Source: Lama guanicoe
Taxonomy: Eukaryota
Direction: 5' to 3'
DNA length: 64,000 bases
Assembly (NCBI GenBank): GCA_013239625.1
Contig: MU053304.1
Location: 558,001-622,000 of the forward strand
Part shown: in pieces, positions 6,173 through 60,054 of the stretch
Layout of the letters: every line of letters begins with the position of its first letter
Position numbering within the stretch: position 1 is the stretch's first letter
Position numbers and translations under genes: made by a program
The notes under the pieces: model-generated
What the model was told of the DNA's origin: nothing
Database searches by the model: none
Seen by the model: the letters and a program-made list of their open reading frames with translations, nothing else

Positions 6173-6310
6173 GGGAGGGTGTAGCTCAGTGGTAGAGTGC
6201 CTGCTTAGCATGCACAAGGTCCTGGATTCAATCTACAGTACCTCAGTTAAAAATAGATAAAAAATAAAAACATATATACATACATCCCCCAAAGTAATAC
6301 AAATAAAGGG
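6173..6310 (+). mobile_element. tRNA-derived SINE (vic-1-like, camelid type)
   Basis: A box 'tagctcagtggtagag', B-box-like 'gattcaatc', and an A-rich tail. Near-identical copies occur elsewhere in the window. Confidence 0.85.
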
Positions 6311-33319: not shown

Positions 33320-34205
33320 GCTCCTCTTTGCCTCAACTGCTCCATCCTCCCTGGAAACAGGTCCCTGGGTGCAAAGAGCCTGGTGCCCTGCAATGGCAGC
33401 AGGGCCTTGGAGTCCTTTGACCCTGAGGACTTAAACCTGACTGATGAGGAGCTCAAGTTCAAGTACCTGGGGCCCCAGCAGATGGAGCTGTTCCTACCCA
33501 TCTGTGTCACATACCTGTTGATCTTTGTGGTGGGTGCTGTGGGCAACGGGCTGACCTGCACTGTCATCCTGCGCCATAGGGCCATGCGCACGCCCACCAA
33601 CTACTACCTCTTCAGCCTGGCCGTGTCGGACCTGCTGGTGCTGCTCCTGGGCCTGCCCCTGGAGCTCTACGAGATGTGGCGCAACTACCCGTTCCTGCTG
33701 GGAACCGGCGGCTGCTACTTCCGCACGCTGCTCTTCGAGACGGTCTGCCTGGCCTCGGTGCTCAACGTCACTGCCCTGAGCGTGGAGCGCTACGTGGCCG
33801 TAGTGCACCCGCTGCAGGCCAGGTCCGTGGTGACGCACTCCCACGTGCGCCGCGTGCTCGGGACCATCTGGAGCCTCGCGGTGCTCTGCTCTCTGCCCAA
33901 CACCAGCCTGCATGGCATCCAGCAGCTGAATATCCCCTGCCGGGGCACAGTGCCTGGCTCGGCCGTGTGCACTTTGGTCCGCCCAAGAGCCATCTACAAT
34001 CTGGTCGTGCAGACCACCGCGCTGCTCTTCTTCTGCCTGCCCATGGCCACCATCAGCGTGCTCTACCTGCTCATCGGGCTGCGGTTGAGGCGTGAGAGAC
34101 TGCTGCTGCTCAGGCAGGAGTCCAACGGCAGAGCCAGGACCAGGGACAGCCGCAGGCTCCAGCGGCTGCCGAATAGGGGTCGGACACAGGTGACCAAGAT
34201 GCTGT
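33320..34205 (+). CDS. NMUR1: Neuromedin U receptor 1, coding exon 2 (N-terminus to ICL3/TM6 start)
   Basis: Acceptor ttccacag| and donor T|gtaagt (phase 1). Class A GPCR motifs [20 protein letters not shown] and SVERY, plus the NMUR1-typical [19 protein letters not shown]. Confidence 0.97.
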
Positions 34206-34439
34206 GTAAGTTTTGCTGCTGGCAAGAGGGGCTGAGCCAGGCACTGGGTATGAAGCTGGGGCTTCCGGGGGCCCTGGGGAAGGGGCTGAGTGTCTGGGTT
34301 TATGATGGAGGCTGAATGTGAGGTATGGAGTAACACCACTGCCACCCACTGTGTGCCCGCGCGCATGCGCACACTCTCACACTGCAGGTGTATACTTTTT
34401 TAGATTACCTTGTGAGAAACCGACACCAAAGATAAATGT

Positions 34440-36520: not shown

Positions 36521-36903
36521 TTGTGCTGGTCGTAGTGTTTGGGATCTGCTGGGCCCCGTTCCACATCGACCGCCTCATGTGGAGCTTCGTGTCCCGCTGG
36601 ACCGAGGGCCTGCACCTGGCCTTCCAGTACGTGCACGTCGTCTCCGGCATCTTCTTCTACCTCGGCTCGGCCGCCAACCCCGTGCTCTACAGCCTCATGT
36701 CCAGCCGCTTCCGCGACACCTTCTGGGAAGCCCTGCGCCTGGGGGCCTGCTACCACCGCCACAGACCCTGCCACAGCTTCCACAGCCTCAGCAGGGTGAC
36801 CACAGGCAGCACCCTGTGTGACACGGGCTCCCTGGGCAACAGAGCCCATCCTCTGGCTGAGAACGGTGGCCCAGGGGGGCAGCAAGAGACTGACCCCTTC
36901 TAA
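36521..36903 (+). CDS. NMUR1: Neuromedin U receptor 1, coding exon 3 (TM6, TM7, C-tail)
   Basis: Acceptor ccgcccacag|TT (phase 1). Encodes CWAPFH, NPVLY and SSRFR and ends QQETDPF-TAA. The spliced CDS is 1272 nt = 423 aa. Confidence 0.97.
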
Positions 36904-39903: not shown

Positions 39904-40051
39904 AAAAAAAAATTGTTATTACTTTTTTATTTTTGGTGGGGGAAGGTAACTAGGTTTACTTATTTATTTATTCTTAGAGGCAGTACTGGGGACTGAACCC
40001 AGGACCTCATGTATGCTAAGCATGTGCTCTACCACTTGAGCTATACCCTCC
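39904..40051 (-). mobile_element. tRNA-derived SINE (vic-1-like)
   Basis: Reverse complement of the SINE head 'ggggagggtatagctcaagtggtagagc..ggttcagtccccagtac'. Perfect 14-bp TSD CCAGTCCTGACATT at 39890-39903 and 40052-40065. Confidence 0.9.
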
Positions 40052-42254: not shown

Positions 42255-42402
42255 ATTTTTTAAATTAATCTTTCTTTTGGCGGTGGGGAGGAGGTAATTA
42301 GGTTTATTCATCTATTTATTTAATGGAGGTACTGGGGCTTGAACCCAGGACCTTGTGCATGCTAGGCATGCACTCTACCACTGAGCTATACCCCCCCCCC
42401 CC
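42255..42402 (-). mobile_element. tRNA-derived SINE (vic-1-like)
   Basis: Reverse complement of the SINE head: 'gtactggggcttgaacccaggaccttgtgcatgctaggcatgcactctaccactgagctatacccc'. Confidence 0.85.
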
Positions 42403-44649: not shown

Positions 44650-45869
44650 GTTGTACAGTTGAGCATCTCTTCATAGCTTTATGTGCTACCTAAATTTCTT
44701 CTGAAAATTGCTTTTCATATCCTTTGCCTGCTTTTTCTTACTGTAGTTTTTCATATTCTGATACTAAATTTTTATTATATGTTACAAATATTTATTCCCA
44801 ATTTGTTCCTTATATTTTAGAATTGTTTATAAAGACTCATGCATCCAAAGTTTTAAATTGTATCATGGCAAACCCGTCATAATTTCACTTATGGATTTTT
44901 GCTTGGCGTCTTAAGAATGATGGCGTCATTTATATTCTAAATTCTTATTACTTATTTTAATAAGAATGCTTCTTAATTTTTGCCATCAAAAATATTTTTT
45001 ACATTTTCACAGATAAGCTTTATCTAAAATGATATAGTGTTTTTCTTCCTTTAGCTTGTTAGTTTAATTGACATTATTTCTTTACCTTGAAGCATCTTGC
45101 ATTCCAAAGGTAAATGCTATTGGTCAATATTCTTTTACTACATTCAGTGAGGGACTAAAATCTCTGAACTACGTAGGCAGATCGATCTTCCTCTTCTTTC
45201 CTAACTTGGAACTTACTCAGGGCCACCCTTCCCCCACACGCCCCCCCCCAAAAGCCCTTTTCCCAATCCCAATATGGGTATAATTACTAGAATTTTCATC
45301 CTGCTATTGGGCCTAACGGTGCTAATGACCATAAGATAGCACGTTAATGATGGTTTAACTCAAAGAAACTAGGAGACTGTATTAAGTAACTGAGGATGCA
45401 AATTAATGGCCTCGGATGAGTTCCTTAACCTCTGTGAGCCTCAATTTCCTTAAAAGTAAAATGAAACTAGCAATAACATCTAAGTCACAAGTTTGTTTCT
45501 AAAAGTCCACAATAAAACGTATAAAAAGTAACCAGTACAATGCCTTGCGCAAAACATCTATCAGTGTATTTTACCTATGACCATTACTACCGTCACTACT
45601 TTGATGGCAGTTTCAGGAGCCAGTGGGCAAGGAAGCGGCGATGCCTGGGGTCAGAAGGCCAACTGCCAGGCTCTGGTCCCCGCTGCACTTGGCTGTTAAG
45701 GCCTGTGCCTCCTTCTAGGCTGAAAATCGCAGCAGGTCTAACACACACTCCAGTGAGTGGGTGGCTGCCTACCGGGTTAACGGATGTAAGCGCCTGGAAC
45801 CGACCCTGGCTCACAAGCCCACAACGAAAGACTGTTTTTATGACTGCTGTTTACGTTTTACAGCTCCAC

Positions 45870-46330
45870 CCGTAGGTTAGCTGTGTGACCTCCCGCCAGG
45901 TCCCCGAACTTAGCGAAACCTGCGCCTTGTCCCCCGGCAACTTGGGACTAATGCCGAACGACCTCCGAGAATCCGGACCAGGGGTACTACCGGCTCCCGC
46001 CCGCACTAAAATGTCCTCCCCGCGCGCAGGCGCAGCACGTGCTGTCCCAGCTCGAGTCCCCGCCCCCTCTCTGGGGTCGCGGTTCGGGATTGGCCCAAAG
46101 GCGTCACGGGCTCTGATTGGGCGAGGTGGAATCACGAGGGTGCGGTCCCCTTCCGGTCTGTGTTTGGCTGGGTTCTGGAGTGTAGAGCGGCCGCTGGGAG
46201 GTGCCGGCGCCTGCGGGCCTAGTTCTGTTCCGCTGGGGCTTGGCGTCCGGGACTGCGGCCGCGCGGTGGGCGGGGCCCTACCTACACCTGCGGTACTATT
46301 AAAAGGAGAACTAGTCAGGGAAGACACTGT
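45870..46330 (+). promoter_or_regulatory. CpG-island promoter upstream of the NCL-like duplicate
   Basis: CpG-dense, with two inverted CCAAT boxes (near 46089 and 46116), an ETS motif CTTCCGG near 46150, a GC box GGGCGGGGC near 46268 and a possible donor gag|gtgccg at 46200/46201. Confidence 0.75.
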
Positions 46331-46917
46331 GCGGGTTAATTTGGGAAGTGATGGTTAACGGTTCTGGCTTGAGACTCCTTACTTGTGTTGTAAATTTTGG
46401 TGGGGGCAGAGATGGAAGCTCCTCCATTCAACACTGAGTTTTCAGTCTGGAGACGTAAAGACACTTGAATTGTAGGTACTGATTTTGTTCTTGTGTGTTG
46501 TGCTGTTTGGCTCTGTGTGCTTCCATTTGAGCAGTCGGTGGTGGAATTACTGATTTTTTTTTTTTAAACCATCACAGTTATTTGAAAACGCGTGGTGAAA
46601 GGAGCAGAATGAAGGGAAAAGGGAGGAATTCCTGGGGCTTGCCTATTTTTACCTTGAGGAGGTTCCATTTCTATATCTTGGCAAAAGAAAAGATAAGAGA
46701 AACCTAGCCTGCAAACATACCAAAAATTATCTTTTGCTATGTATTTTTATATTAGCTGGTGTGAGTAAAAGATATCAAATGAAAATAGCTTTAGAATGAG
46801 GCCTAACACGGATTTATTGCAAATGGAAACTTAACTGCAAATATTGGAGGCAAAAACATGCATAGCATGGACTGTTGAAGGCCCTGTCATGTGCCTAATG
46901 ATCTTGTCCATTTTAAG

Positions 46918-47025
46918 CAGGGAAAAAAATCAAGGAAACTGAAGAAAAAGAACCTTTCCCCAAAGGAGATAGAAGATGGGGAAGATGAGATGTCTGAAGA
47001 TAAGGACAATGGCAGTAGAGATAAG
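46918..47025 (+). pseudogene. NCL-like exon 2 equivalent (acidic)
   Basis: Reads PKEIEDGEDEMSEDKDNGSRDK|gtaat, against NCL PKEVEEDSEDEEMSEDEEDDSSGEE|. Confidence 0.8.
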
Positions 47026-47916
47026 GTAATTGTATGTACAGCGTGGAGCATTAATAGCTTATTAATGTCAACAGTCAAAATCCAGAGTAAAGCTGTTAAA
47101 CTGCACTGTACAATCTAACAAGTGGTATTGTGAACTCTTTCCAACTAGTTTCGCAAGCCCACCCTAAACTTGGTACCAGAAACTGACAGTCATTTTTAGA
47201 AAAGAAAATTACAGACCACTCTCATGAGATGCAAAAGTTCCAAACAAAATATTAGCAAGTTGAATATCAGTGTTTTGTAAAAAGAATAAGACATTGTAAG
47301 TATGGTTTATTTTGGGAATGTAGAAGTGTTTTTTGTTTCAACGGTGATATTGATTGCCTGGAAATACTGGTTTGAAAGAAAATCTCATGACTCTTAAAAT
47401 TGCTTTATTAAATGTGTGCCAACCAAACATGTTTATATATTTATTCTTTCTGTGAATATTTAGATCCGTAGTATGTTCTGCTTTTGACTTGGAGCCTCTG
47501 CATTAGTATTTGAATATAGATGGGCTTAAGTTGTGTCCTAAAAGAATTGAGGTGAGTGAATGGGTGCACAGCTACTGAATACTGAATGCTTCATGTGTGC
47601 AGCCACTGTGCTAGGACTTTATGCATTGTCTCATTTCATCCTCCCAGTGATCGTATTTAGTAGACATCCTTAGCTCCATTTTACAGACAGGAAAACAGAT
47701 TTAGTCATTGACTAACTTGCTCATGGTTTCTTAACTAATGACAGAATTAGGATTCTGCTGAATCCAAAACCCTTGCTCTTTCCTGGTTCATTCCTCAGTC
47801 TTCACCCAAGCAACTCTTTTGGAGAGACAGATGGTGGATATTTATTGTCTGCTTTGAGCAGCTAGTTGCATAGTAGAAACTTTAACACTATTCAGTCTAG
47901 TAGTTTTAATCAATCA

Positions 47917-48275
47917 AGGGATAGAGCACTGTGCTTAGCATGCACAAGGTCCTGGGTTTAATCCCCAATACCTCTGTTAAAAAATAAATAAACCTAATTA
48001 CCTTTCCTACACCCCCCAAAAAATAAAACAAATAAAAAAATGTTTAAAAAAAGTAAGTTATCTAGGAGGGTAGGGGTATGGATGAAATAGATGAAGAGGA
48101 TTAAGAGGTACAAACTACCAGTTATAAAATAAGTAAGTCGCAGGGATGTAATGTACAGCATAGGGAATGTAGTCAATAATACTGTAATAACTTCATATGG
48201 TGTGTAATCTGTAAAAATACAGAATCACTGTGTTGTACACTGAAGCTAACAATATTGTACAATAGTACTTCAAAA
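47917..48275 (+). mobile_element. Partial vic-1-like SINE followed by a LINE-1 3' end
   Basis: 'gtgcttagcatgcacaaggtcctgggtttaatccccaatacctc' and an A-tail, then 'aagaggtacaaact.ccagttataaaataagtaagtc..gggatgtaatgtacagcataggga'. Confidence 0.75.
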
Positions 48276-49268
48276 AAGTCAATTATTCATGCATACTTTT
48301 TGATTTTAACTTGAAACATTAAATATGTATTCAGTTGCCAATCTTTTGATGTGGGATGAAAGCCTTGTCTGCATTCACTGTTGCAGTAACTTATCTTCTC
48401 TGTATAAAATACACCCATAGTGCATCTTCTGCATTTTAAAATTTGCTTCTTTAAAGCAAAGCAAAACTTTAAAAACCTAGCAAAGCAATTTGAATGTAGA
48501 CTTCCACATTTTTACAATTTTCCCCATTCTTTTATGGTTGCTTACCCACACCTGATTTGACTGCAGTTTTTAAACTTTATCAAGTATGTCCAAAGTGTTC
48601 AACTTTGTTTTCATAGATTCAATAACTTTGTGCATTAATTCGATCGGTTAACATGACATTTATTATGTAATTGAAACTGCACCTACAGTGGTCACATACA
48701 GGTTTGCAAACAAACACAACTGAGGCTTATTAAGGGTACATTTCAGCTCATGGGAGCAGAAATGCCCAGGTGTGCTGGGAGTTCCACATAGCAGTCCATT
48801 AGCCACACATGCTTTGCGTTTCATAGGCATCAAGTTAGTAAATCCTGGAATTGAGGCAGTCATTTACTCTAGCCACATAGTTCAGTGTGGCATAGTTAAG
48901 TGGACATAGTAGACACAGTTTAGAGAGCACCTACTGTACTGTGATGTCTACAATACAGTACATTAACTCTCCATAGCCGTCAGAGCCAAAAAAGTCTTGG
49001 TGAATGCAGTGTTTGTTTTGGAACCTAGACTGCTAGCTCAGAGGGAAGTAGAAGCAGTCACGTTATGTTTTCCTTAAACTGAGATGCATGTGATATGTTT
49101 CTAGACTGTTCCCACTGGCAACCTTTAGTCATTCCTCTCTAAAATGTGATGTCTGTAACAGTTTACTCTAATTGGTGCAGCAAATAATAATACTATCACA
49201 GATTAACTTTTAGGCTAACCAAACCCTACTGTTGGCCCATCAAAATTATTCAATTTAAACCCAAGTCA

Positions 49269-49402
49269 GGGGAGAGTATAGCTCAGTGGTAGAGTGCATG
49301 CCTAGCATGCAGAAGGTCCTGGGTTCAATCCTCAGTACCTCCACTAGAAGTAATAAATAAATAGATAAACATAATTACCTCCCACCCACCAAATAGATTA
49401 AT
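49269..49402 (+). mobile_element. tRNA-derived SINE (vic-1-like)
   Basis: Head 'ggggagagtatagctcagtggtagagtgcatgcctagcatgcagaaggtcctgggttcaatcctcagtacctcc'. Approximate TSD aaacccaagtc / aaaccttagtc. Confidence 0.85.
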
Positions 49403-50354
49403 AAACCTTAGTCTTTTTCACATATCTTCCCTGATCCCACATCATTCCCAGGTCAGATGAACCGGTCCCTCATCTGTTTCCCTGTCAATTTTGTTCATTA
49501 CCAGTAATGCTAATCACATCATATTATAGTTTCTCATCTCTTCCTGTGATGTGGGTTGAGATATATATACCAGTTGTGTTTTTGCTGGGGCTGCCGTAAT
49601 AAAATATCTCAGACTGGGTGACTGAAACAACAGAAGTTTACTTTTTCACAATTCCAAAATCAAAGATCAAGTTGTTGACAATTTGGTTACTTCTGAGGCC
49701 TCTCTCATTGGCTTGTAGATGTCTGCCTTCTCACTGTGGTTTCACGTGGTCATCCATCGCCCATAGTTCTTCATTTTCTCCTTTTGTATATGGTGAGACT
49801 TCATTTGGTGTTCTGCTAAACTTTTCATCTTTAGTCATTTAGTTTTGTAATACTGTGCCCTGTTATCAGTAGCCCCGGGATGGGAATTGACAGGGTAGAC
49901 AGGAAGCATGAAGTCCAGTCTTTGGGGCCTGGCTCTCATTCCTGTGTATATTCCACATGGCTGTGTGGGGCCTTCTTTGGTGTTTCACTTGTATGCAGAG
50001 AGCTGGGACTCCACAGGCACGTGGAGCCTCCTACACAGTAGTTGCCTTGACGTACTTTCCTTGGGCAGTGCTTGCATATTTTTAGAAACCTAGATCCTTC
50101 CCTCTGGAGATTCTGATTTGATAGCTCTTAGTGAAGTACGAGAATTTTCTTCTCTTCTTTTCCTTAGACAAGCATGCCAGGTTATTCTGGTGCTGGGAGC
50201 TCTTTCCTGCACGTTGAAAAATTCATCCTGGAGGAGATCAGCACAGATGTTGACACGTATGCCCGAGCAGATCTTGCACTTGCTGACTGTGCAGTATGAT
50301 CGTCACCTCCTGGCCAAAGGGGAGACCTCGTCACTGCTGCTCTCCCTCCTCCAG

Positions 50355-50563
50355 GTTGTCATCCCTCAGAAGAACCATAGGAAGGTTACCACTGCTCCAG
50401 GAAATAAAGTCAGGGGGAAAAAAGCATCTGGCTCCCATGTTTGCTGAGAAATTAATACCACCATGTAGGGAGGGAGCCACAGGAGCCAAGCTGCCAGGAG
50501 ATAGGAGGAATGCCAAACTGGAGGGCCGTGAGGAGAGACGTGCGGACTCTGATGAGAATGAAG
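50355..50563 (+). pseudogene. NCL-like exon 3 equivalent, shortened and frameshifted
   Basis: Begins ccag|VVIPQK, as NCL exon 3 does, and hits TGA at 50445-50447. The 3' part (..RRNAKLEGREE..DSDENE|gtaag) is in another frame. Confidence 0.8.
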
Positions 50564-51170
50564 GTAAGAACAGTGGGTTGGATGAGGACCAGGAAGGTAG
50601 AGACCCCTTCTGGGGACGTCCCTGGTGCTGGCTGTAAGGCGGCAAAGTTCAGCCCTGCATGCCATCCCACATGGCTCTGGGACGGGTTCTGTGAAAATCC
50701 CAGCCCTCAGAACTGTTGCCTCGGAGGTCCCCGGCCGATTCGCCAGGCTTGGCTTGAGGAGTCTCTGAACATTTGACTTCTGCTGTCCAGAATCAGAGAA
50801 CGACCAGAAACAAGGTTTTCTCTTTGAGCTTTATACCTTGATTGTTTCTCTCTTTGTGCTTATGAGCCACGCAGGTGAATCATCCCCCTAACTTACTCTC
50901 AAGTGATTTTGTTTTTGTCTTGACAGAGTCTGTGTAACATTTTAAATGGTATTGCTTCCAAAGCAATAATTCTTAGCGTTTTTTAAAAAATACAATGGCA
51001 AAACATTTTAAATTATTTCAAAATATAAGTTTAAAATGACAGTGAATTTTTTCCCCTTAGATTTGTGTATATAGTCAGATGTATGAGCAGTTTCTCTGAA
51101 AGAACAGTTTGTCATTTATGTTCTTAACAAGTCTGTGAGGCAGTAATTGATTAGGAGGGTTTTCATTTAG

Positions 51171-51280
51171 ATTCTGAAAAAGAAGTCATATGAGAAAAGC
51201 CTTTCCTGTGGGGGCGAAGGAAGATGAGCAGGATAGGGAGGGTGGTGACAAAGGCTGCCAGGAAGAGGAGGAAGAGGGAG
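51171..51280 (+). pseudogene. NCL-like exon 4 equivalent, frameshifted
   Basis: tttag|(D)SEKEVI then TGA at 51191-51193. A second frame reads KAFPVGAKEDE..EEEEEG|gtcag, against NCL DSEEEAM..KVVPVKAK..EEEEE. Confidence 0.7.
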
Positions 51281-51561
51281 GTCAGAACGACCTGAACTAG
51301 CTCTGGAAAGTGCTGGCCGCTATCAGGGAATAAGAGAGATAAGGGAAACCCTTGGCCAGGGCTGTGGGTTTCTTTTATGAACTTGGACTTTCTAATTAAT
51401 TTATAAGTGCTTTTAAAAGTGTTCTGAGAGACCTAACCCAGGCGTCTGGTGGCGAACAGGCACCACGTAGGTACAGTGTTCGTGGACTTTGTAAAAGCTT
51501 CCACTTTACTCATTAGTGGCACAGATCATTAAGAGTGCCACATTCTGGCTTTCACCCGCAG

Positions 51562-51648
51562 AGTCTATGCAAAAAACCACCTGATAAACAGAAGAAGGAA
51601 ATGGCCAAAAGAAGGCTTTCCCTGAAGCCAAAATACAGAAATTAGAAG
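51562..51648 (+). pseudogene. NCL-like exon 5 equivalent (bipartite NLS) with compensating +1/-1 indels
   Basis: 87-nt phase 1-1 exon resembling EPVKEAPGKRKKEMAKQKAAPEAKKQKVEG. In the main frame it contains TGA TAA at 51582-51587. Confidence 0.85.
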
Positions 51649-51727
51649 GTAACCTCTTTGCTGTGTTTTAAAGCACAAGAGACACGTGGAGAATTTCATA
51701 TTGGCAAAACTCAAATCTCTGTTAGCC

Positions 51728-51813
51728 CAAATGATGAACAAAGGAGTTTTAATTGCAGCCTGGTGTTACAATATGCCAGTCTTTAATGGAAATTTCTTTT
51801 GACATCATTCTGA
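51728..51813 (+). ncRNA. SNORD82: Decayed SNORD82 (U82)-like C/D snoRNA relic in the intron-5 equivalent
   Basis: C box ATGATGA at 51731-51737, then 'acaaaggagttttaat...cctggtgttaca', resembling U82, which NCL hosts in this intron. The guide and D' box appear degenerate. Confidence 0.6.
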
Positions 51814-51847
51814 ACTGTTTATTTGAGTTCTTTTCTTTCTTTTTTTC

Positions 51848-51878
<31 letters not shown>

Positions 51879-51903
51879 TTTTTTTTGCCTTTTTGTATGG
51901 CAG

Positions 51904-52042
51904 CTGAACCACCTGTAACTTTCAGACTATTTGTTGGAAAACTGAATTTCAACAAAACCGTTGCTGAACTAAAAACTGATCTTAGTGAATTTTTTGCTAA
52001 AAATGATGTCGCAGTTGACAGTGTCAGAGTCAGCTTGTCCAG
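51904..52042 (+). pseudogene. NCL-like exon 6 equivalent (RRM1 N-half), open frame
   Basis: AEPPVTFRLFVGKLNFNKTVAELKTDLSEFFAKNDVAVDSVRVSLSR, against NCL TEPTTAFNLFVGNLNFNKSAPELKTGISDVFAKNDLAVVDVRIGMTR. Flanked by cag| and |gtaa. Confidence 0.92.
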
Positions 52043-53081
52043 GTAAATAGATTGTTGTTAAGAGTTTATCAGCCCAACAATGATTATTCAGGTCAGACCG
52101 TCTTGTGACTTGCTCCTCATCCCTCAGTAGGACATTACCTTGGTCTCTTGCAGTTTAGAGCATTTAAAACCCTTCAGTGGCTTATTTAGTAAATCCATTA
52201 TATTAATTTTTGCTATCCCATTTTTCCAACCAGAATACTAAAGTAATCCGAAGATCTTCCAAGTCATTCCAGAGACACATTTTCATGATTTTTCAGCTGT
52301 GAACAATGCCATTTGCCTTAGAATTATTTTAAACTAATCACAAATTTAATCATGAAACCCCTAGCTTTGGTGGCAAATATAGGTTCTGTATCACTTCCGC
52401 TTTTTTGCTGAGTTGAATTTCATCCTTTCTTACTTCTTTCTCATCAGAAGCACATGCCTTGGGCATGGGCGTGTTTATTTTATGGTACTCAGAATTTCTT
52501 AGGTAGAGTTGAGAAGATAATAGTAAACATTCACTGAGCGCTAAACTGTTCCAGGCATTTTCTTAGTTCCTTGTTTATTTAACTCCTTGAAACCATAAGA
52601 CAATCCTCAGTAGTAATTTTTGTCATTATTCCCATTTTACAAAGGAGGGAATTGAGGCACAGAGAAGTTAAGTGACATGCCCAATATCCCACAGTTAGAA
52701 AGTGGCGGGGGCAGGATTTGAACCCAGCGCTCTGACTCCAGAACTTCTGCCAAGACTTTTGTCTTATTGCTCTTTTTACGGTTTTTGTGAACTGTATTTT
52801 GAAATATTGTCGCATTTGCAGTAAATAAAGATTCCTTTTGCATTAGAAAAATATTCTGACTGTAATAGCCCTTGAGTTTGCTAACATATTCTGTATTAGG
52901 ATTGATATTTTTGTTCCAGTTCCCAAATGCAATGGCTGTTTCTTAAAACAGAAATTCAAAAGCTTGTCATTTCAAGCTTCATTTTCTATAGCTTTTGGTT
53001 AAATTTAGTCAGTTTTTAAACAGAAAACTAATAAAGATTCAACGGGTAAGTTTGCACTGACTCTCCGTCCTTGCCCTGGAG

Positions 53082-53278
53082 GAGGGCTTCTCAATTTTGG
53101 CACTATTGACATTTGGGGCCAGATAACTCCTTGTTATGGGGGGCTGTGCATTTCCTTGTAGGCTGTTTAGCACATCCCTGGGGATCTTCCCATTGACACT
53201 GGAAGTGCCCCCTTACTAGATGTGACAGCCAAAAATGTCTCCAGACATTGTCAGACTCACCCTGGGTGAGAACCCCTG
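53082..53278. mobile_element. MER20-like hAT MITE
   Basis: Motif 'ttctcaa..ttggcactattgacatttggggccagataa...aaaaatgtctccagacattg...tgagaacccctg'. Confidence 0.8.
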
Positions 53279-53472
53279 CTCTCTGGTTACTTCATAGCAC
53301 TGCTGTTGCTAGTTGGTGGAGCCTTGGTTTTAAATTGTAAATTTGGCAGCTGTGTTTGACTCAATGCTAATTTTCACTCTCATATCCAGTGCACTTAGCC
53401 AACCAGAAGGCATGTGCCTCTTGATTTTACCTGTTTTTTTTTTTTTTTCCTTTTCGGCTACATCTCTGTTAA

Positions 53473-53597
53473 GAGATTTGGTTTTGTGAATTTTAAATCT
53501 GTTGATGACCAGGAAAAAGCCCTGGAACTTAGTGAGTCGGAGGTCCTTGGGTATAAAATTAAATTTAAGAAACCAAAGGGAAAGGAAACAAAGAAAG
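53473..53597 (+). pseudogene. NCL-like exon 7 equivalent (RRM1 C-half, RNP1), open frame with altered acceptor
   Basis: RFGFVNFKSVDDQEKALELSESEVLGYKIKFKKPKGKETKK|gtagg, against NCL KFGYVDFESAEDLEKALELTGLKVFGNEIKLEKPKGKDSKK. Confidence 0.9.
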
Positions 53598-54213
53598 GTA
53601 GGCAAACGAGGTACCTTGTTCATAGATACCTGTGCATCTAGAAGATTCTGCATCAGGTGGGAATATCACGTTCTTTCTCATCCAGGGCAAGTACTCCTCA
53701 GTTTCTGGCAAGTCACCGGCCTCCACAGCACAGTCTTTCTCACCTTTAGGCTGCATTGCTCACCTGCCCTGTCGTCATGTTCGTGACTCATTCCCTGGCC
53801 ACTAACAGCCCCTCCAGAGAGTCTCAGCTTAAAGGTCACTTCCTTAGATCAGAAGCATTTTCCCTGACCCCTCAAACAGTTAAGTCTTCTCTCCTCCATG
53901 TTTTCATTTCCCTTTTTATTTACTTTTCCTTCCTGGCACTTACCACAGTTTGTAATTATGTGACTGTTTGTTTACTAGCCTTTTCCCCAACAAGACTACT
54001 TTCCCAGGAGTGGAGGCCAAGTCTGTATTTTCACCACCAGCACGTAGCACAGGCCCTCACCCAGACTCTGTGTTCAAATATTTGTTCAGTGAAGGAATAT
54101 GTACTGTTTCCACTCTTTAACTATTTGAGAAGTATTTTTGTCTCTTGTTAGAGCACTTTTGATGCTTATGAGATCTAAACTCAGACTAAAAATACTCTTT
54201 TGTGTATATACAG

Positions 54214-54328
54214 ATGGAAATGCCAAAATGCTTTTGATCAAGAACAGAGTCACTCAGCATGAATTAATAGAAGTGTTTGAGGATACTTTTCAAATCAGAC
54301 TGGTGAGCAAGGATGGGATGAGTGAAAG
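54214..54328 (+). pseudogene. NCL-like exon 8 equivalent (RRM2 N-half), open frame
   Basis: cag|DGNAKMLLIKN---RVTQHELIEVFEDTFQIRLVSKDGMSE(R)|gtatg, against NCL ERDARTLLAKNLPYKVTQDELKEVFEDAAEIRLVSKDGKSKG. Confidence 0.9.
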
Positions 54329-54581
54329 GTATGTTTTGTACCTTGTACTGAAAATATATGTCTACTGGATTCTAATGTAACAGAATTTCATTATATTCTC
54401 CCAAATCACTCATACCTGATTTTAGAGAAGAGTAGTCATCCAGGCTTTCTACTGGCAGACATAAAAAGCATCATAAATGGATAGCCAAAGGCTTCTAGAA
54501 AATTGTAGTGGTGTCACAGACAAATAAAGACTTACTCTATCAAGTATAAGATTGAAGACTGGAAGAATCTAGTTATAGGTT

Positions 54582-55152
54582 TTTGTTTTGTTTAATTTAT
54601 TTTTATTGAAGTATAGTCAATTTACAGTGTGTCAATTTCTGGTGTACCTCACAATGTTTCAGTCATACAGGAACATACATATATTCATTTTCACCATAAG
54701 TTACTACAAGATATTGAATTTATTTCCCTGTGCTATACAGCATAAAATTGTTGTTTATCTATTTTATATGTATTAGTTAGTATCTGCAAATCTCAAACTC
54801 CCAATTTATCCCTTCCCACCCTTTTTTCCCCCTGCTAACCATAAGTTTGTTTTCTATGTCTGTGAGTCTGTTTCGTTTTGTAAATTAGTTTTTTTTTTTA
54901 GATTCCACATATAAGTGATATCATACAGTATTTTTCTTTCTGTTTCTGGCTTACTTCACTTAGAATGACATTCTCGAGGTCCATCCATGTTGCTGCAAAT
55001 GGCATTATTTTACTATTTTTATGGCTGAGTACTATTCCATTGTATAAATATACCACATTTTCTTTATCCTTTCATCTGTTGATGGACATTTATGTTGATT
55101 CCATGTCTTGGCTATTGTAAATAGTGCTGCTATGGACATTGGGGTGCATGTA
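54582..55152 (-). mobile_element. LINE-1 3' fragment
   Basis: L1 3'-UTR sequence. TSD tagttataggtt (54570-54581) / tagtcataggtt (55153-55164). Confidence 0.88.
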
Positions 55153-55769
55153 TAGTCATAGGTTCCCTTCATTCCACTTTATTTCAGTCACTTCAGGGCT
55201 AACTCCAGTAAAATCACACACTTGGTGAGTTACCTGTGCAGGTACTAAAAGAGAACATTGAATTGGTCTGTTAGAATGATGTAAGCAATTAATGAAACAC
55301 TATCACTGTGTATCTAGGCTTTGGTAGCATAAGAGGGTGAATACGGTGAAATTAGAAAAGATGGACTAGAATGCATTTTGAAGGGATTCTCAATGAGACG
55401 AAAATTGGAAATCAGGATTACAGATACACTTGAGCTAAATTTGTTGGTGTCAGTTAACTCTAAAATAACCTCTACTGTATATATATATATTTTTAGGTTT
55501 CTCTATTTTTATTTTATTTTTTATTGAAGTATAGTCAGTTTACAATGTTGTTTCAATTTCTGGTGTACAGCACAATTCTTCAGTCATACATGAATATACA
55601 TATATTCATTTTCATATTCTTTTTCACCATTCTGCCATGTATTCTGATGAACATAATCTCTAGAAAAGACTCCTGCAGATTTAGAAAACAAGTCTGAGAG
55701 GATAAATCCCAAATTGTTAGTGGTGTTTGCTGTAACAAGTACTGTGAGCACTCTGCTGGGCTTGCAAAC

Positions 55770-56740
55770 TATACAGAAAAATTAACTAAAATAGATGAAA
55801 GACCTAAATGTAAGCACTACGATGAAAAGACAGAAGTAAATCTTTGTAATCTTGGATGAGGGTATTACACAAGCCATAAAAAAGAAGATTGAGAAATTGG
55901 GCTTTATCAAAATTAAAAACATTTGTACTTCAAAAGACACTATCCAAAAAGTCATAAGAAACTCTACATCCTGGGAGAAGATATTGCAAATCATATATCT
56001 GATAAGGGACTTATATTCAGGATACATAAAGGACTTGTACAGCTCAATAATAAAAAGGCAACCCAATTTAAAAATGGGCAAAGGACTTGAATGGACGTTT
56101 CTTCAAAGAAGGTATACAGACGGCCAATGGACATGAGGAAAGATGCTCAACATTAGTTGTTAAGGAAATGCAAATCAAAACCATGATGTGATACCATTGC
56201 ATATTCATTAGAGTGGCTGTGATAAAAAAGACAGACAGTGACAATGTTGGCAAGGAAGTAGAGAAATCAGAACCCTCATTCATTGCTGGTGGGGAATGTA
56301 AAACAGTGTAGTTGCTTTGGAAAACAGTTTGGCAGTTTCTCAAAATGTTAAACATAGAGTTGCCGTATGATCCAGCAATTCTGCTGGAATTGAAGTACTG
56401 ATACATGCGACAACGTGGATGAGTCTCCAAAATATTGGGCTGAATGAAAGAAGCCAGACACAAAAGATGGCATATTTGTATAATCCCTTATATAAGATGT
56501 CTAGAATAGACAGATCTGTAGAGACAGAAAGTAACGTAGTGATTGCCGGCAGCTGGGGGACGGCAGTGAGTTGAGGGGAATGAGGGGTGACTACTGATGG
56601 GTACTTTGTGGGATGCTGAAGATGTTCTAAAATCAGATGGTGGCAATGGTTCTAGAATTCTGTAAACACACCATTGTACACTTTAAATTGGTGAATTTTA
56701 TGACATGTAAACTATATCTCAGTAGAGCTTTAAATAAAAA
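55770..56740 (+). mobile_element. Old LINE-1 (L1M-type) ORF2 end and 3' UTR
   Basis: ORF 55852-56136 (IKIKNICTSKDTI..WEKI) is L1 ORF2-like, and L1M 3'-UTR motifs follow. Confidence 0.85.
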
Positions 56741-56953
56741 AAGACGTGTATATGTGTATACATTTGCTTTTATATGTACAGCATGTTACCTCTAAGGATA
56801 GAAACTGGGCAGAAGGAAGACTTTGCTATATCTTTTCTATCTTTTGCATTCTGAGTCTTGTATGTTCATTCCTGATTCAAAAGACAAATAATTAAAAGTG
56901 CTAAATGTTGACCGTTCTTTCTTCTCTCTCCTATCCCAACCCCACAATTGCAG

Positions 56954-57105
56954 GATCGCCTATATTGACTTCAAGTCACAGGCCGATGCAGAGAGAGCCT
57001 TAGAACAGAAACAAGGAACTGAGATCGGTGCCATAGTTCTGGACCATGTTGGAAAGAAAAGCCAAAACCAAGAAGAGAGAGATGGAAAAAACAGCGCCTG
57101 GAGAA
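56954..57105 (+). pseudogene. NCL-like exon 9 equivalent (RRM2 C-half), open frame, phase-1 donor
   Basis: cag|IAYIDFKSQADAERALEQKQGTEIGAIVLDHVGKKSQNQEERDGKNSAWR A|gtaagg, against NCL IAYIEFKTEADAEKTFEEKQGTEIDGRSISLYYTGEKGQNQDYRGGKNSTWSG. Confidence 0.92.
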
Positions 57106-57572
57106 GTAAGGGTGTTAAAGCTGTAGATGGAGACTTGCCAGGCTTGTTTGTTAGCATGGCCCCCAGGGAGGGACTGGCAGGAGGTTAAGGGAACTTGATA
57201 CTTTTAAATATAATTTCTCCCTATATCAGAATGCATAAATCATCCTCATAATTCTATCAAGCTAATGGGTTTTGTCCTAGTGAACTGTGACTTTGATGTC
57301 TGCAAAAGGCGTGGCACTTTGAGATACATCAGTTCAGTTCCCCTTTTTGGGGTATCTTCTAGGATTCTGTTTGAACAAGATCTTGAACCTTTGGTTTCAG
57401 AATTAGATATTTAATTCTCTTCAACATTTAATTCTCTTCAAATAGAGTTTTTATCAAGTTTAAACCAGAGATTCCAAACCAGTGTCCCTAATCTGCTTAA
57501 TCTGATTGGTAGACATGATGCCTACACAGTGTTTAAAGAAAAAAAACAATAGAATTTACCATGAATATTTTT

Positions 57573-57827
57573 ATTTAAATATTTTTTTCCTTTTATAAAG
57601 CTTAAATTTTTTTGCTTGTTCTAATTTATTTTATTTTTTATTGAAGTGTAGTTGATTTACAATGTTAGTTTCAAGTATACAGCAAAGTGATTCAGTTACA
57701 TATATACATGCATAAGTATATTTTTTCAGATTCTTTTCCATTATAGCTTTTTATAAGAAATTGTATATAGTTTCCTGTGCTATATTGTAGGTCCTTGTTG
57801 TTTATCTGTTTTATATATAGTAATGTA
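57573..57827 (-). mobile_element. LINE-1 3' fragment nested in the hAT element
   Basis: 15-bp TSD accatgaatattttt (57558-57572) / accgtgaatattttt (57828-57842). Confidence 0.85.
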
Positions 57828-58129
57828 ACCGTGAATATTTTTAAAAATCAAGAAATTTCACATAAAAATCTGGATTTCTAGCTTCTTTTGCTACATCAGA
57901 GAATCTGGTGGCCCTGGGGCCACACTCTACGTGTCCACAGGCATCTGCTCCCTCTTAGCTGTTGGCTACAACCCCCACTGTTCTTGACGTTCTCCCCAAC
58001 TCTGAAGGAGTGACCATACTCTGACACTTTGGAAAAAATAGTTAATACTTTTTTCTTCCAAAGTGGTACTTTTTTCTTATTGATAAAGATGACATTTATA
58101 ATATGTCTTGTATATTTGTCTTTTAAAAG

Positions 58130-59860
58130 TGGGAAAATGAAAGTTAGAACAAGAAAGCCATACATTTCAAGAAACATGGGAGAAAACTTATTTCTTTGTG
58201 GAGGTAAAGAATGTTCCTACATGTTTAATATGCAAAGTCTGTCTGCGTCGAGAGAATGTAGCCTAAGACAGCATCATGAAACCAGCCATAGTAAGAACCA
58301 TGACGGGTTTACGGAAAAGATGCGGGATAGAAAACTCAACGAGCTGAAAAAAAGACTGAAATTTCAACATGATTTTCTTTTGAATGTGAGTAAAATAAGT
58401 GATGCTGCTATGAAATGTAGTTAAGTGTTAAGCAAGAAAATTGTCCGGGCATCAAAACCCCCTACAGATGGCGAGTTTATAAAGGACTGTCTACTGAGTG
58501 CGGCGGAAATCATGTGTCCTGAATAGAGACAAGCGTTTGCCAACATCAGACTCATTGGTGATATTGTTGCGCAGCACGTTGACAACATGACTGAGGACTT
58601 GCAGGACAAGTTGCAAGAAAAAGCCAGATCATTTGTGGCTTTCTCCATTGCAGCTCAGGAAAGCACTGATGGAAATGACACCCCCCACAGAGCTGTCTTT
58701 ATTCGTGGTGTCAATGAAACTTTTGATGTGACCGAAGAACTTTTGGGTGTGGTCCCCATGACAGGCACAACATCAGGAAATGAATTATTTCAATTTGTTG
58801 AGAAAAGTCTTAAAAAATTTAACATGGACTGGTCAAAATCAATATTAGCACAGATGGTAATTCTGCAGTGGTTGGTGTTAAAGAGCTAGTTACAATACTG
58901 AAATTGAAAGTGTCGGGGCTTTGCCAAGACACAGCACTTAAGTCTGTGTGTGGCCTCATTCTCCAGGAGTCACTTTAGGCTAAAAAATTTAAAACGGACC
59001 ACGTCATGGACATAGTAATTTATACCATAACCTGGATACGTTGCCATGGCTCGGACCACAGAAAGTTCAGTGCTTTGTTTAATGAGTCAGATGCACAATA
59101 TGGAAGCATGTTCTGCTCCATGGAACTTAAGTGGCTAAGTCGTGGTGAGATCCTCAGGCACTTTTTTGAACTATTGGAAGAAATTGACTTTTTCATGTCT
59201 TCTAAAGGAAAAGCTGTGCCTCAGCTTATGAGCAAAGACTGGGTCAGAGACTTAGCCTTTTTGGTTGACATTATGACGTATCTAAACATGTTGGATATTT
59301 CTCTGCAAGGATGTTCACAAATGGTGACACAAATGTATGATTCACTTCACTCATTCCTAGCGAAATTGTGTCTTTGGGAGACTCATTTGGCAAGGAACAC
59401 TCTGGCCCACTTTCCTACGCTGAAATTAGTTTCTGAAAATGAAAAGGATGGACTGAACTACATTCCCCAAATTAAAGAGTTGAAGACTGAATTCCAGAAA
59501 AGGTTCTCTGATTTCAGAGTTTATGAGAATGAACTAATATTGTTTAGTTCCCCTTCTCCATTAATATTAATAATGTGAATGAAGAGCTACAAATGGAAGT
59601 TACCGAATTGCAGTGCAACACTATACTGAAAGTGAAATATGATGATGTTGGGGTCCCAGAATTCTACACATGCATTGGGAATGGTAACCCTAAATATAAA
59701 AACCATTGTGCAAAGACTTTGCCCATGTTTGGAAGTACTTTATGTTTGTGTGCAGCTATTTTCTGCTATGAAGCTGAATAAAACTGAATACTGCTCCCAG
59801 TTAAAGGATTCAAAGATGAATCCTCTGCAGGATGTTGCAACACAAAATCCACAACCTTAA
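58130..59860 (+). pseudogene. Disrupted Charlie8/GTF2IRD2-like hAT transposase (BED-type Zn finger, RNase H-like core, dimerisation region)
   Basis: Blocks FQETWEKTYFFVEVKNVPTCLICK, FIRGVNETFDVTEELL..VPMTGTTSGNE, KWLSRG, DWVRDLAFLVD, FLAKLCLWETHL.RN.LAHFPTLKLVS.NE.DGLNYIP and EELQMEV..LQCNT.LK match the GTF2IRD2 transposase domain. Stops at 58138, 58422, 58524 and 58976; frameshifts near 58236, 58840, 59555 and 59740. Confidence 0.92.
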
Positions 59861-60048
59861 GAAAAAAAATATCTACAACCTGACATTGATTGACATCTTG
59901 CGGCATAAGAAAGGAATGTCAGATTTTGAATTTCAAATCTGAGGAGTAATACTTTGAATAATTATTTCTATTTCCAAATTATATTTTTTCAACGTCAAAG
60001 TTAAAGTGCAATCTCTGGCATCATATGTTTGTGCCTTATAACATATGA

Positions 60049-60054
60049 AATAAA
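60049..60054 (+). terminator. AATAAA polyA signal after the transposase exon
   Basis: AATAAA about 190 nt after the transposase stop, followed by U/GU-rich sequence. Confidence 0.55.

Follow-up and report, generated by a model that had tools for sequence, protein, structure and literature searches.

A probable unitary pseudogene of a nucleolin–Charlie8 transposase fusion gene upstream of NCL in Lama guanicoe

The window analysed here, a stretch of 64,000 nucleotides of Lama guanicoe DNA (contig MU053304.1), carries a partial copy of the nucleolin gene NCL and, about 1 kb further along the same (plus) strand, the remnant of a Charlie8 (hAT) transposase. The question raised by this arrangement is whether the two parts once belonged to a single gene. 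The original prediction read positions 46918–60054 as a fusion of the acidic, NLS and RRM1–RRM2 part of NCL to the transposase, and this interpretation is supported by orthologous proteins with the same joint. We are confident that the region is a unitary pseudogene, the dead orthologue of a host–transposase fusion gene whose origin dates back at least to the last common ancestor of placental mammals.

The nucleolin-like part consists of equivalents of NCL exons 2–9 with GT–AG borders at 46918–57105. All coordinates proposed earlier (exon borders, donor, acceptor, stop and polyadenylation signal) were found to be correct when re-read from the sequence. About 0.5 kb 5' of exon 2 lies an unstranded CpG island (45700–46400; GC 0.62 and CpG observed/expected 0.87 in 400 bp windows) that may have served the fusion gene as its promoter. 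Searches for exon 1, by tblastn with the N-termini of bat proteins and by blastn with the 5' end of NCL, returned no equivalent. Exon 2 (46918–47034, between AG 46916–46917 and GT 47035) encodes the acidic N-terminus and shows 73% nucleotide identity to true NCL exon 2 and 74–75% amino-acid identity to the rhinoceros and elephant proteins (tblastn). Where the models of rhinoceros, elephant and cat start with Met, L. guanicoe has Asn.

Exons 3–5 are damaged by at least two frame changes (exons 3 and 5) and one stop (exon 4). Exon 3 (50355–50596, a basic/acidic region with an alternative donor at 50563) was delimited from the sequence and by tblastn against the rhinoceros protein, which returns two overlapping segments in different frames. 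An assembly error may account for its frame change near 50410–50426, which sits in a homopolymer run (G5A6). Exon 4 (51171–51280, acidic; read from the sequence) is out of frame or stopped (TGA 51191–51193) in the phase fixed by exon 3, and tblastn matches it to the elephant protein only in another frame. Exon 5 (51562–51648) contains the NLS-like stretch KKTPDK.KKEMAKQK and changes frame near 51606–51633, as seen from the sequence and from two tblastn segments in frames 1 and 3.

Exons 6–9 are all open. Exon 6 (51904–52042, with borders cag^ and ^gtaaat, where ^ marks a splice site) covers the first half of RRM1 and is 57% identical in amino acids to NCL and 76–79% identical to the bat and rhinoceros orthologues. 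The second half of RRM1 is found on exon 7 (53476–53597, from border reading; Pfam RRM_1, E = 1.5e-4 for the frame piece), which is one residue shorter than in bats. Exon 8 (54214–54328, from tblastn and border reading) encodes the first half of RRM2 and has an in-frame deletion of three codons directly after the RNP2 motif. Exon 9 (56954–57105; Pfam RRM_1, E = 6e-4) completes RRM2 and the linker with a two-codon deletion. Its donor, TGG AGA A^gtaagg at 57105, is in phase 1 and corresponds in position to that of true NCL exon 9.

The relation to the true gene was examined by tblastn with the 14 exon-bearing frames of NCL from the same genome. Equivalents of exons 2–9 were found between 46921 and 57116, with E-values of 5e-17 to 1e-14 for exons 6–9. 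True NCL itself lies at 85035–93440 in coordinates extended past the window, 25 kb beyond the fusion locus. Exon 10 has no match, and exons 11–14 have only chance or low-complexity matches, in extended coordinates 1–84500, which reach 20 kb beyond the window up to the NCL promoter. The earlier statement that no exon-10-like sequence is visible downstream in the window is thus confirmed, and it extends to exons 10–14 and as far as true NCL. The copy resembles NCL in its exon 2–9 layout, splice phases, acidic stretches, NLS-like region, RRM1 and RRM2; unlike NCL, it lacks RRM3, RRM4 and the RGG tail. Of the four RRMs and C-terminal RGG/GAR tail of a nucleolin orthologue, RRM1 and RRM2 alone are present, and the nucleolin-like part is a truncated NCL paralogue. 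Identity to NCL in the RRM region is only 62–66%. At the nucleotide level the similarity (70–80%) is confined to the exons and the introns cannot be aligned, so the NCL duplication is old. An intact orthologue, compared with solved structures, matches nucleolin RBD12 entries best (E = 7e-79 to 6e-54).

Between the two parts lies the fusion intron (57106–58129), which contains a fragment of an L1 3' end at about 57620–57830. Its last 22 bases, from 58108 onwards, are Charlie8 sequence; homology to other Charlie8-derived copies begins at this point, and similarity to them is limited to 58108–59814. The former transposase start codon, now ATT, is located inside the intron. With the last base of the acceptor (ttttaaaag^) at 58129, the exon opens at 58130 with TG GGA AAA TGA, five codons into the Charlie8 transposase frame ('MSLSK^VGKRK'; codons AAA-G^TG). 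As the alignment shows, the acceptor AG is native transposon sequence common to two other copies. Phases and alignment place the transposase on an exon of its own, joined at an acceptor near the start of its frame. The phase-1 donor at 57105 and phase-1 acceptor at 58129/58130 are as originally described, and orthologous proteins have the same joint; 57105^58130 is the predicted splice joint in L. guanicoe.

The transposase exon (58130–59860) encodes a C2H2 zinc finger, an RNase H-like core and a C-terminal part. The TAA at its end (59858–59860) and the AATAAA (60049–60054) that closes the 3' untranslated stretch (59861–60054) are both confirmed. The finger had been called a BED finger, a claim that we do not retain: it matches the Pfam Spin-doc C2H2 model instead. 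Membership of the Charlie8 group is evident from the 64–68% amino-acid identity of an open piece of the remnant to GTF2IRD2 proteins, the transposase domain of which is described as being of Charlie8 origin (PMC10641963). Four stops (TGA 58138, TAA 58422, TAG 58524 and TAG 58976) and four frame changes (near 58237, 58840, 59545 and 59740) interrupt the exon, and L. guanicoe lacks the open reading frame of a functional gene. The gene had rightly been called disabled here, with the damage understated, since three of these stops and the four frame changes come in addition to TGA 58138. That codon had been taken for a decayed Arg codon, in agreement with the orthologues, which have Arg (cat, rhinoceros and elephant) or Gln (bats and galago). 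In contrast to the frame change of exon 3, the four substitution stops cannot be attributed to assembly error.

Intact relatives were sought with the 199-residue open piece of the transposase remnant (58979–59578). This query retrieved 13 protein clusters at 74–85% identity, nine of which combine Pfam RRM_1 with transposase domains, while true GTF2IRD2 proteins match the same piece at 64–68% only. Intact fusions are carried by vespertilionid bats, cats, lynx, black rhinoceros and elephants, with partial forms in galago, zebra and sloth; members of the clade thus occur in Laurasiatheria, Afrotheria, one strepsirrhine primate and one sloth. The distribution is patchy, whereas GTF2IRD2 is present in nearly all of the mammals listed. 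In all 14 inspected fusion proteins with an RRM part the joint ("...WR^[V/M]GK[R/Q]K.EQESHTFQEKW") is identical. The suggestion that the gene might be intact elsewhere is thereby borne out by the protein search: open RRM2–transposase frames exist in other mammals, where host and transposase sequence share the single frame that is broken in L. guanicoe. The scaffolds that carry the fusion protein and NCL in Myotis myotis have an identical length of 94,234,955 bp and may be one and the same. In bats the product comprises acidic stretches, an NLS-like region, RRM1, RRM2, the C2H2 zinc finger, the hAT core and the C-terminal part. The predicted RRM1–RRM2 pair is therefore correct for bats, but the models of cat and elephant lack RRM1, and that of rhinoceros has half of RRM1 fused to half of RRM2. 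The architecture, which the original prediction had not recognised as a named gene, is annotated automatically in RefSeq and UniProt under a misleading name, the labels being "GTF2IRD2-like" or "RRM domain-containing protein". No paper on a nucleolin–Charlie8 gene was found in a literature search that covered the principal catalogue of such fusions in its main text.

These proteins bear directly on the simplest alternative, in which an ordinary Charlie8 fossil lies by chance 1 kb from a decayed, partial duplicate of NCL and the two were never fused. The genome carries about 30 other Charlie8-like pieces, the L. guanicoe transposase copy is full of stops, and neither terminal inverted repeats nor an 8 bp target-site duplication was convincingly found flanking the element, all of which would suit such a coincidence. 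The absence of the repeats and duplication is nevertheless expected at the age of the element and has no bearing on the protein family. Proteins from at least four mammalian orders join both sequences at the identical position, each half of the locus is nearest in trees to the matching half of the fusion proteins, and the copy is far less diverged from the near-ancestral protein P0013 (63% identity) than are neutral fossils (42–49%). We regard a chance origin as extremely improbable; for practical purposes it is refuted by the shared joint together with both trees.

In the transposase tree the L. guanicoe copy and ten fusion proteins form one clade (support 100) that follows the species tree, and a starred subset of this clade unites the copy with the sequences of rhinoceros, cat and bats (support 96). 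Separate clades, each with support 100, hold GTF2IRD2 and the FUBI-type proteins. In the RRM tree the copy clusters with five bat-type fusion proteins (100/100). Distances from the central node to the intact fusion proteins are 0.18–0.27 changes per site, compared with end branches of 0.96–1.06 for three neutral Charlie8 fossils of the L. guanicoe genome. From these sequences the intact transposase parts appear to have changed 4–5 times more slowly than the fossils, in a comparison that mixes lineages with different rates and in which the fossils may represent neighbouring Charlie subfamilies. Neutral evolution (dN/dS near 1), which the original prediction had set as its counter-case, fits poorly with a transposase rate of about one quarter of that of the neutral fossils, as measured by branch length. 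Nei–Gojobori dN/dS values are 0.21 for the L. guanicoe copy against the GTF2IRD2 exon of the same genome and 0.50–0.77 between fossils, with dS saturated. In the RRM part the end branches are 0.16 for an intact orthologue, 0.18 for the dead L. guanicoe copy and about 0.02 or less for true NCL. The RRM part of the fusion thus evolves roughly ten times faster than NCL, and constraint on the RNA-binding half is accordingly weak or recent.

A second alternative is that all mammals carry the locus in a dead or non-coding state and that the 'GTF2IRD2-like' proteins are chimeras built by homology-guided gene predictors. Most intact copies are indeed automatic gene models with automatic names and varying exon content, those of the horse family, galago and sloth being partial, and GTF2IRD2 homology is described as misleading annotation pipelines in non-mammals (PMC10641963). 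Against this, the transposase frames of ten orthologues (bats, felids, rhinoceros, elephants and galago) run unbroken over 543–582 residues, compared with eight lesions in the same length in L. guanicoe, and they evolve 4–5 times more slowly than the fossils. No low-quality mark was present among the names seen. Two Logan contigs, obtained without any gene predictor, give uninterrupted frames (3101 nt/813 residues and 2546 nt/711 residues) spanning parts that are 7 kb apart in the L. guanicoe window; their length suggests that they derive from spliced RNA. We consider an annotation artefact very unlikely.

It is somewhat easier to imagine, though still improbable, that the L. guanicoe copy is not fully dead and yields a non-coding RNA from the CpG island or a short RRM1–RRM2 protein from exons 6–9. 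The island persists, exons 6–9 have canonical splice sites and together leave 176 codons open, and the annotations of Myotis and elephant include 'nucleolin-like' isoforms without the transposase. If lesions were as dense as in the transposase exon (8 in 577 codons), however, 176 codons would escape damage by chance in about 9% of cases. Moreover, exons 3–5 are frame-shifted or stopped, the Met of other species is lost and RRM2 lacks three residues beside its RNP2 motif. A unitary pseudogene is the preferred reading, and lesion density and branch length suggest that the gene died in the L. guanicoe lineage very roughly 15–25 million years ago.

The fusion can be envisaged as follows. NCL was duplicated in tandem between NMUR1 and NCL, and a Charlie8 hAT transposon now follows exon 9 of the upstream copy in sense orientation. 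Splicing from the phase-1 donor of this exon to an AG within the transposon coding sequence, a joint that the orthologous proteins display, replaced RRM3–4 and the RGG tail by a nearly full-length transposase.

The intact product is probably a nuclear protein that pairs a nucleolin-type RNA-binding module with the DNA-binding and oligomerizing parts of the transposase. A hAT structure was not found by a sequence profile search. For a poor model of the galago orthologue (mean pLDDT 41.8) Foldseek gives chains of Hermes transposase as each of its ten top PDB matches (E = 7e-5 to 2e-3, TM of about 0.15). The positions that we take to be catalytic were assigned from hAT motifs and agree with strand positions in this model. 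On this assignment the DDE triad is incomplete: the first putative Asp is His in all ten intact fusion orthologues, which retain the second Asp and the Glu, and Gln in L. guanicoe. Because of this His, shared by every intact orthologue examined, the transposase has probably lost the ability to cut DNA.

The closest relative is GTF2IRD2, which belongs to the same Charlie8 family (one protein family in trees) and placental age class, retains the C2H2 zinc finger and has its joint five codons inside the transposase reading frame, immediately ahead of 'VGKRK'. Its host part consists of GTF2I repeats instead of nucleolin exons, and its putative catalytic residues differ in the opposite sense, the first Asp being kept and the second being Thr. 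GTF2IRD2 lies at a different locus and forms a separate clade (support 100), so the two genes would represent independent captures. SETMAR, CSB-PGBD3 and KRABINER are similar in that host exons are spliced to an acceptor already present where the transposase frame begins; fusions of this type contribute a KRAB, SET or SCAN-type chromatin domain, whereas the nucleolin fusion contributes an RNA-binding RRM pair. Such an acceptor pre-existed at the transposase start in eight of nine examined cases according to the Cosby et al. preprint (10.1101/2020.05.07.082677), the main text of which, as distinct from the tables of its 94 fusions, mentions neither RRM nor nucleolin.

The Charlie8 acceptor used here and by GTF2IRD2 is also used by a third host fusion, in which FUBI (FAU ubiquitin-like) is joined to Charlie8. 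These proteins occur in felids, a bat and elephants as unnamed 'GTF2IRD2-like' models and differ from the nucleolin fusion in their ubiquitin-like host domain, locus and clade. The FUBI–Charlie8 copy of L. guanicoe (L009) is also a pseudogene, with eight stops.

The window carries the pseudogene of an ancient nucleolin–Charlie8 fusion gene that is intact in several mammalian orders, where it goes under a misleading automatic name. The original prediction had proposed such a fusion of nucleolin-like exons to a Charlie8 (hAT) transposase, dead here and perhaps intact in other mammals, and it was right: orthologous proteins were found. Its coordinates are all correct on re-reading the sequence. 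The exon 2-like segment starts at 46918, behind an AG at 46916–46917, and the exon 9-like segment ends at 57105 (TGG AGA A|gtaagg) in the same phase as the NCL exon 9 donor. The ttttaaaag tract ends at 58129, the transposase exon begins at 58130 and closes with a TAA at 59858–59860, and the poly(A) signal AATAAA lies at 60049–60054.

The window corresponds to G000:C593:558001–622000 of a 2.05 Gb mammalian assembly, of which the next 40 kb downstream were also examined. Two receptor-like exons lie on the plus strand at 33281–34315 and 36481–36903, as long open frames with seven-transmembrane features; from the earlier prediction and our look at the sequence we take them to be NMUR1, which is expected next to NCL. 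True NCL is complete downstream, with 14 exons running from MVKLAK to KKTKFE at 85035–93440 in window numbering extended into the downstream DNA. The order on a single strand is therefore NMUR1, the nucleolin-like copy with its transposase, and NCL. Using the 14 exon-bearing frames of this NCL as tblastn queries, nucleolin-like exons 2–9 were matched at 46921–57116, with E-values of 5e-17 to 1e-14 for exons 6–9. The original prediction had seen nothing resembling exon 10 behind the donor, and this holds as far as the NCL promoter, where exon 10 has no match and exons 11–14 give only chance or low-complexity matches. At the DNA level the duplicate aligns with NCL in the exons only (70–80% identity) and the introns are unalignable; the duplication is therefore old, with exons conserved for much of the time since. 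No equivalent of exon 1 was found with bat N-termini or the NCL 5' end as queries. A CpG island (45700–46400; GC 0.62, CpG observed/expected 0.87) lies 0.5 kb upstream of exon 2 of the dead gene, and the promoter there may have remained active, driving a non-coding transcript or something else.

In the three forward frames of 58101–59900 the transposase frame is broken many times. Its longest open piece (58979–59578, 199 amino acids) was used to search among longer proteins, and the best 120 of the 223 proteins were listed. Among these, the top 13 clusters are 74–85% identical to the query and come from black rhinoceros, cat, lynx, Myotis, Pipistrellus, Cnephaeus, African elephant, galago, zebra and Logan contigs. 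Pfam places RRM_1 beside transposase domains in nine of the 13, which is the RRM plus hAT architecture anticipated for other mammals. True GTF2IRD2 proteins, with GTF2I repeats, rank next among the best 120 of 223 (64–68% identity). Pfam applied to the broken frame pieces of the window gave two borderline RRM_1 matches and no transposase; the identity came from the protein search instead.

The fusion proteins contain nucleolin-like acidic stretches, an NLS-like KKTPDK.KKEMAKQK segment and RRM2, followed directly by the transposase; bats have RRM1 too. Across the joint they read "...GKNS.WR|[V/M]GK[R/Q]K.EQESHTFQEKWERAYFFV", which is the same joint as that predicted for the window. There the sequence is W-R-(A|TG = M)-G-K-TGA-K-L-E-Q-E-S-H-T-F-Q-E, and the cat protein has R-R-M-G-K-R-K-L-E-Q-E-S-H-T-F-Q-E. 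The TGA at 58138 had been explained as probably a decayed CGA (Arg), and the orthologues agree, with Arg in cat, rhinoceros and elephants or Gln in bats and galago; both TGA and a Gln codon could derive from CGA by CpG decay.

A later search added a truncated sloth protein with the fusion-clade signature, which gives the clade members in each of the four placental superorders. The nucleolin and fusion proteins of Myotis myotis lie on scaffolds of equal length. Among the matches listed there are no fusion-clade proteins from cetartiodactyls, apes, monkeys, rodents or non-felid carnivores, while GTF2IRD2 proteins of these groups are present; this absence from annotation weakly suggests repeated loss. 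The gene models vary in exon content: cat and elephant models lack RRM1, those of rhinoceros run from the first half of RRM1 straight into the second half of RRM2, and the galago, zebra and sloth proteins are truncated or have no nucleolin part. The vespertilionid bat proteins P0007, P0008, P0014 and P0129 resemble true nucleolin far more in their N-terminal acidic and TPxKK part than do cat, rhinoceros, elephant or the window, which could be due to gene conversion from the adjoining NCL or to a chimeric gene model.

A transposase tree was built from the window (X at breaks), ten fusion, 11 GTF2IRD2, two stand-alone and two unnamed proteins, and two FUBI-type proteins, in which the FAU ubiquitin-like domain precedes a Charlie8 transposase. 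The GTF2IRD2 rows were picked for taxonomic spread from about 100 among the matches listed; the isoforms P0001, P0003, P0005, P0009 and P0010 and the partial zebra protein P0012 were left out. The window and the ten fusion proteins form one group (support 100), and the GTF2IRD2 and FUBI-type proteins form separate clades (support 100 each). Inside the fusion clade rhinoceros, felids, bats and the window group together (support 96), with elephants and galago outside, as the species tree predicts. In a tree of RRM1–RRM2, the spliced window exons 6–9 join the five two-RRM fusion proteins with 100/100 support. Each half of the window locus is thus orthologous to the matching half of the fusion proteins. 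Some residues lost from eutherian NCL are common to the fusion RRMs and marsupial NCL; the outgroup row of this tree is a eutherian NCL-like sequence, and the tree does not date the duplication relative to marsupials. P0013 (Logan, 605 amino acids), an unbroken stand-alone transposase of Charlie8 type whose first residues are MSLSKVGKRK, has a branch of only 0.024 in the middle of the transposase tree, near the common ancestor of the three fusion clades.

The transposase frames of ten orthologues are unbroken over 543–582 residues, a length over which the window copy has eight disabling lesions. Two Logan contigs (3101 nt/813 amino acids and 2546 nt/711 amino acids) carry uninterrupted frames through exons whose window positions are as much as 7 kb apart, and we read them, from their length alone, as spliced RNA. 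For comparison with neutral decay, five other Charlie8-like copies of the genome (L009–L013) were added to the tree, translated through with X at stops. L010 (G000:C8810:13258097–13262311) is the GTF2IRD2 exon of this genome, 95% identical in amino acids to the deer protein and grouping with the whale and deer rows; its transposase exon is a single frame with one stop in the tblastn read-through. L009 (G000:C3434:5325804–5330490, match 5327304–5328990, minus strand) falls in the FUBI-type clade with eight stops and three frames, so the FUBI–Charlie8 copy of this genome is also a pseudogene. L011, L012 and L013 are neutral fossils with 6–25 stops, 42–49% identity to the near-ancestral P0013 and end branches of 0.96–1.06 changes per site. 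The path from the central node to the intact fusion proteins is 0.18–0.27, a quarter to a fifth of the neutral amount given by these three fossils. By Nei–Gojobori counts the window has a dN/dS of 0.21 with L010 and of 0.30 with L009, and pairs of fossils give 0.50–0.77; with dS saturated (above 1) and protein-guided alignments, only the order of these values counts, and it agrees with the branch lengths. The RRM part evolves fast: the end branch is 0.16 for an intact orthologue and 0.18 for the window copy, compared with about 0.02 or less for NCL. This leaves RRM2 plus transposase as what seems to be the conserved core, and the RNA-binding half may matter fully in bats only.

On the plus strand, the transposase exon of the window copy has stops at 58138 (TGA), 58422 (TAA), 58524 (TAG) and 58976 (TAG) and frame changes near 58237, 58840, 59545 and 59740. 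Further lesions are a frame change in exon 3 at a G5A6 run near 50410–50426, a stop in the incoming phase of exon 4 (TGA, 51191–51193) and a frame change in exon 5 near 51606–51633. The start Met of other species is Asn. Exons 6–9 (51904–52042, 53476–53597, 54214–54328 and 56954–57105) splice through canonical sites to 176 open codons. With lesions as dense as in the transposase exon, a clean run of this length would arise by chance in about 9% of cases. Three codons beside the RNP2 motif of RRM2 and two in exon 9 are lost in frame. Judged by these lesions, the copy is non-functional as a protein-coding gene, and the practical message for this genome is that the locus is a pseudogene. The end branch of the hand-framed window row is 0.16, compared with 0.06–0.12 in intact Laurasiatherian relatives; a value of 0.28 in the later tree is inflated by an automatically stitched row with 59548–59740 in the wrong frame. 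Branch length and lesion count together suggest, roughly and assuming ordinary mammalian rates, that the gene died some 15–25 million years ago.

Aligning the acceptor region with two other Charlie8-derived copies of the genome places the AG within the coding sequence of the transposon itself. The copies read ATG.CT CT. TCA AAA G|TG G.. AAA.GA AAG (M-S/P-L-S-K|V-G/E-K-R/G-K), and stand-alone proteins start MSLSKVGKRK. GTF2IRD2 proteins have ...GLELSN|VGKRKIDQEGRVFQEKW at the joint, and a third set (felids, a bat and the Asian elephant) carries the FUBI ubiquitin-like domain, joined as ...GRMLG|VGKRKMDREHRMFQEKW. Three host genes have therefore made use of a single cryptic acceptor that lies five codons into the Charlie8 frame. 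Exon 9 of the nucleolin duplicate would have been spliced onto this AG, making the fusion. In the window the former transposase start codon is ATT and the bases ahead of the AG are more T-rich than before. The available part of the preprint by Cosby et al. (10.1101/2020.05.07.082677) describes an acceptor that usually pre-exists at the start of the transposase frame in host–transposase fusions, a rule that the Charlie8 acceptor fits. Nothing convincing was found in the way of terminal inverted repeats or a target-site duplication around the transposase copy. The FUBI–Charlie8 proteins P0046, P0149 and P0187, with the ubiquitin-like domain and a full transposase at the 'VGKRK' acceptor, are annotated 'GTF2IRD2-like'.

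In the intact proteins Pfam recognizes two RRM_1 domains, or a single one for elephant, and the transposase part opens with a Spin-doc C2H2 zinc finger, whose Cys and His residues are conserved in every aligned row. Among solved structures, the N-terminal half matches nucleolin RBD12 entries best (E-values 7e-79 to 6e-54). Motifs of hAT transposases point to three residues that we take to be catalytic: a first Asp in DE[S/I]TD, a second Asp in TDG and a Glu in CEQLFS. The first is His in all ten intact fusion orthologues and Gln in the window, whereas other clades have Asp (DE[S/I]TD). The second Asp and the Glu are kept in the intact fusion orthologues; the window has Val in place of the Glu. 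The GTF2IRD2 clade has the opposite pattern, with the first putative Asp kept and Thr at the second. A poor model of the galago protein (mean pLDDT 41.8, low because the alignment held only ten close rows) has a strand-strand-strand-helix-strand core with the His in the first strand and the Asp just after the fourth, and these strand positions agree with the assignment. Foldseek with this low-confidence model returned Hermes hAT transposase chains as all ten best PDB matches, which is only suggestive. A profile of ten transposase sequences matched a single PDB sequence, a designed protein, by chance. The intact product would be nuclear and unable to cut DNA; it would bind RNA in the manner of nucleolin and combine this with the DNA-binding finger and oligomerizing body of a transposase.

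Host–transposase fusions are a recognized route to new regulators, with GTF2IRD2 as the classic hAT case, and to our knowledge few of placental age are known by name. The present gene is the second case, besides GTF2IRD2, in which a transposon of this family was captured at this splice site, and its RNA-binding host half is unusual; the FUBI fusion is a third user of that site. With three fusions at one site, a single cryptic acceptor in one transposon has therefore repeatedly produced genes. The gene is filed as "GTF2IRD2-like" in spite of having no GTF2I repeat. No description of a nucleolin– or RRM–transposase fusion was found in the literature, which for the fusion catalogue means its main text. 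The catalogue preprint (10.1101/2020.05.07.082677) gives GTF2IRD2 as the placental example, and RRM and nucleolin are absent from its main text; the nucleolin–Charlie8 gene may be listed without a name in its tables of 94 fusions or its figure of 55 host domains. A 2023 paper on GTF2IRD2 misannotation (PMC10641963), in the portions available, takes the mammalian entries as correct and mentions neither RRM nor nucleolin. This is a new host–transposase fusion gene unless the catalogue tables already list it.

We consider it quite possible, if short of probable, that the locus represents an undescribed ancestral placental gene that joined nucleolin-type RNA binding (RRM1–2 with the acidic and NLS regions) to the zinc finger and oligomerizing body of a catalytically disabled Charlie8 transposase, was kept by selection for ∼100 million years in bats, felids, rhinoceroses and elephants and decayed independently in other lineages including this one. 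Such a protein could bring RNA or nucleolar factors to DNA sites derived from Charlie8 and hold them there, and the cryptic acceptor would have given rise to three or more host fusions of independent origin (GTF2IRD2, this gene and FUBI). Retention is patchy: some orders have an intact gene, this genome has a dead one, and apes, rodents and cetartiodactyls apparently have no annotated copy, which offers a natural knock-out series for studying its function.

Elsewhere in the window, a Pro/Ser/Thr-rich open frame of 358 codons lies within a GC-rich stretch on the minus strand (2223–3299). Rfam finds no snoRNAs in the window, true NCL being outside it, and gives four tRNA-type matches of 32–56 bits (6175–6245, 39978–40050, 42324–42395 and 49272–49343), most likely tRNA-derived SINEs; one of them falls within intron 2 of the dead gene, whose introns 8 and 9 contain LINE-1 fragments (54588–56560 and 57620–57830) that recur several times in the 40 kb downstream.
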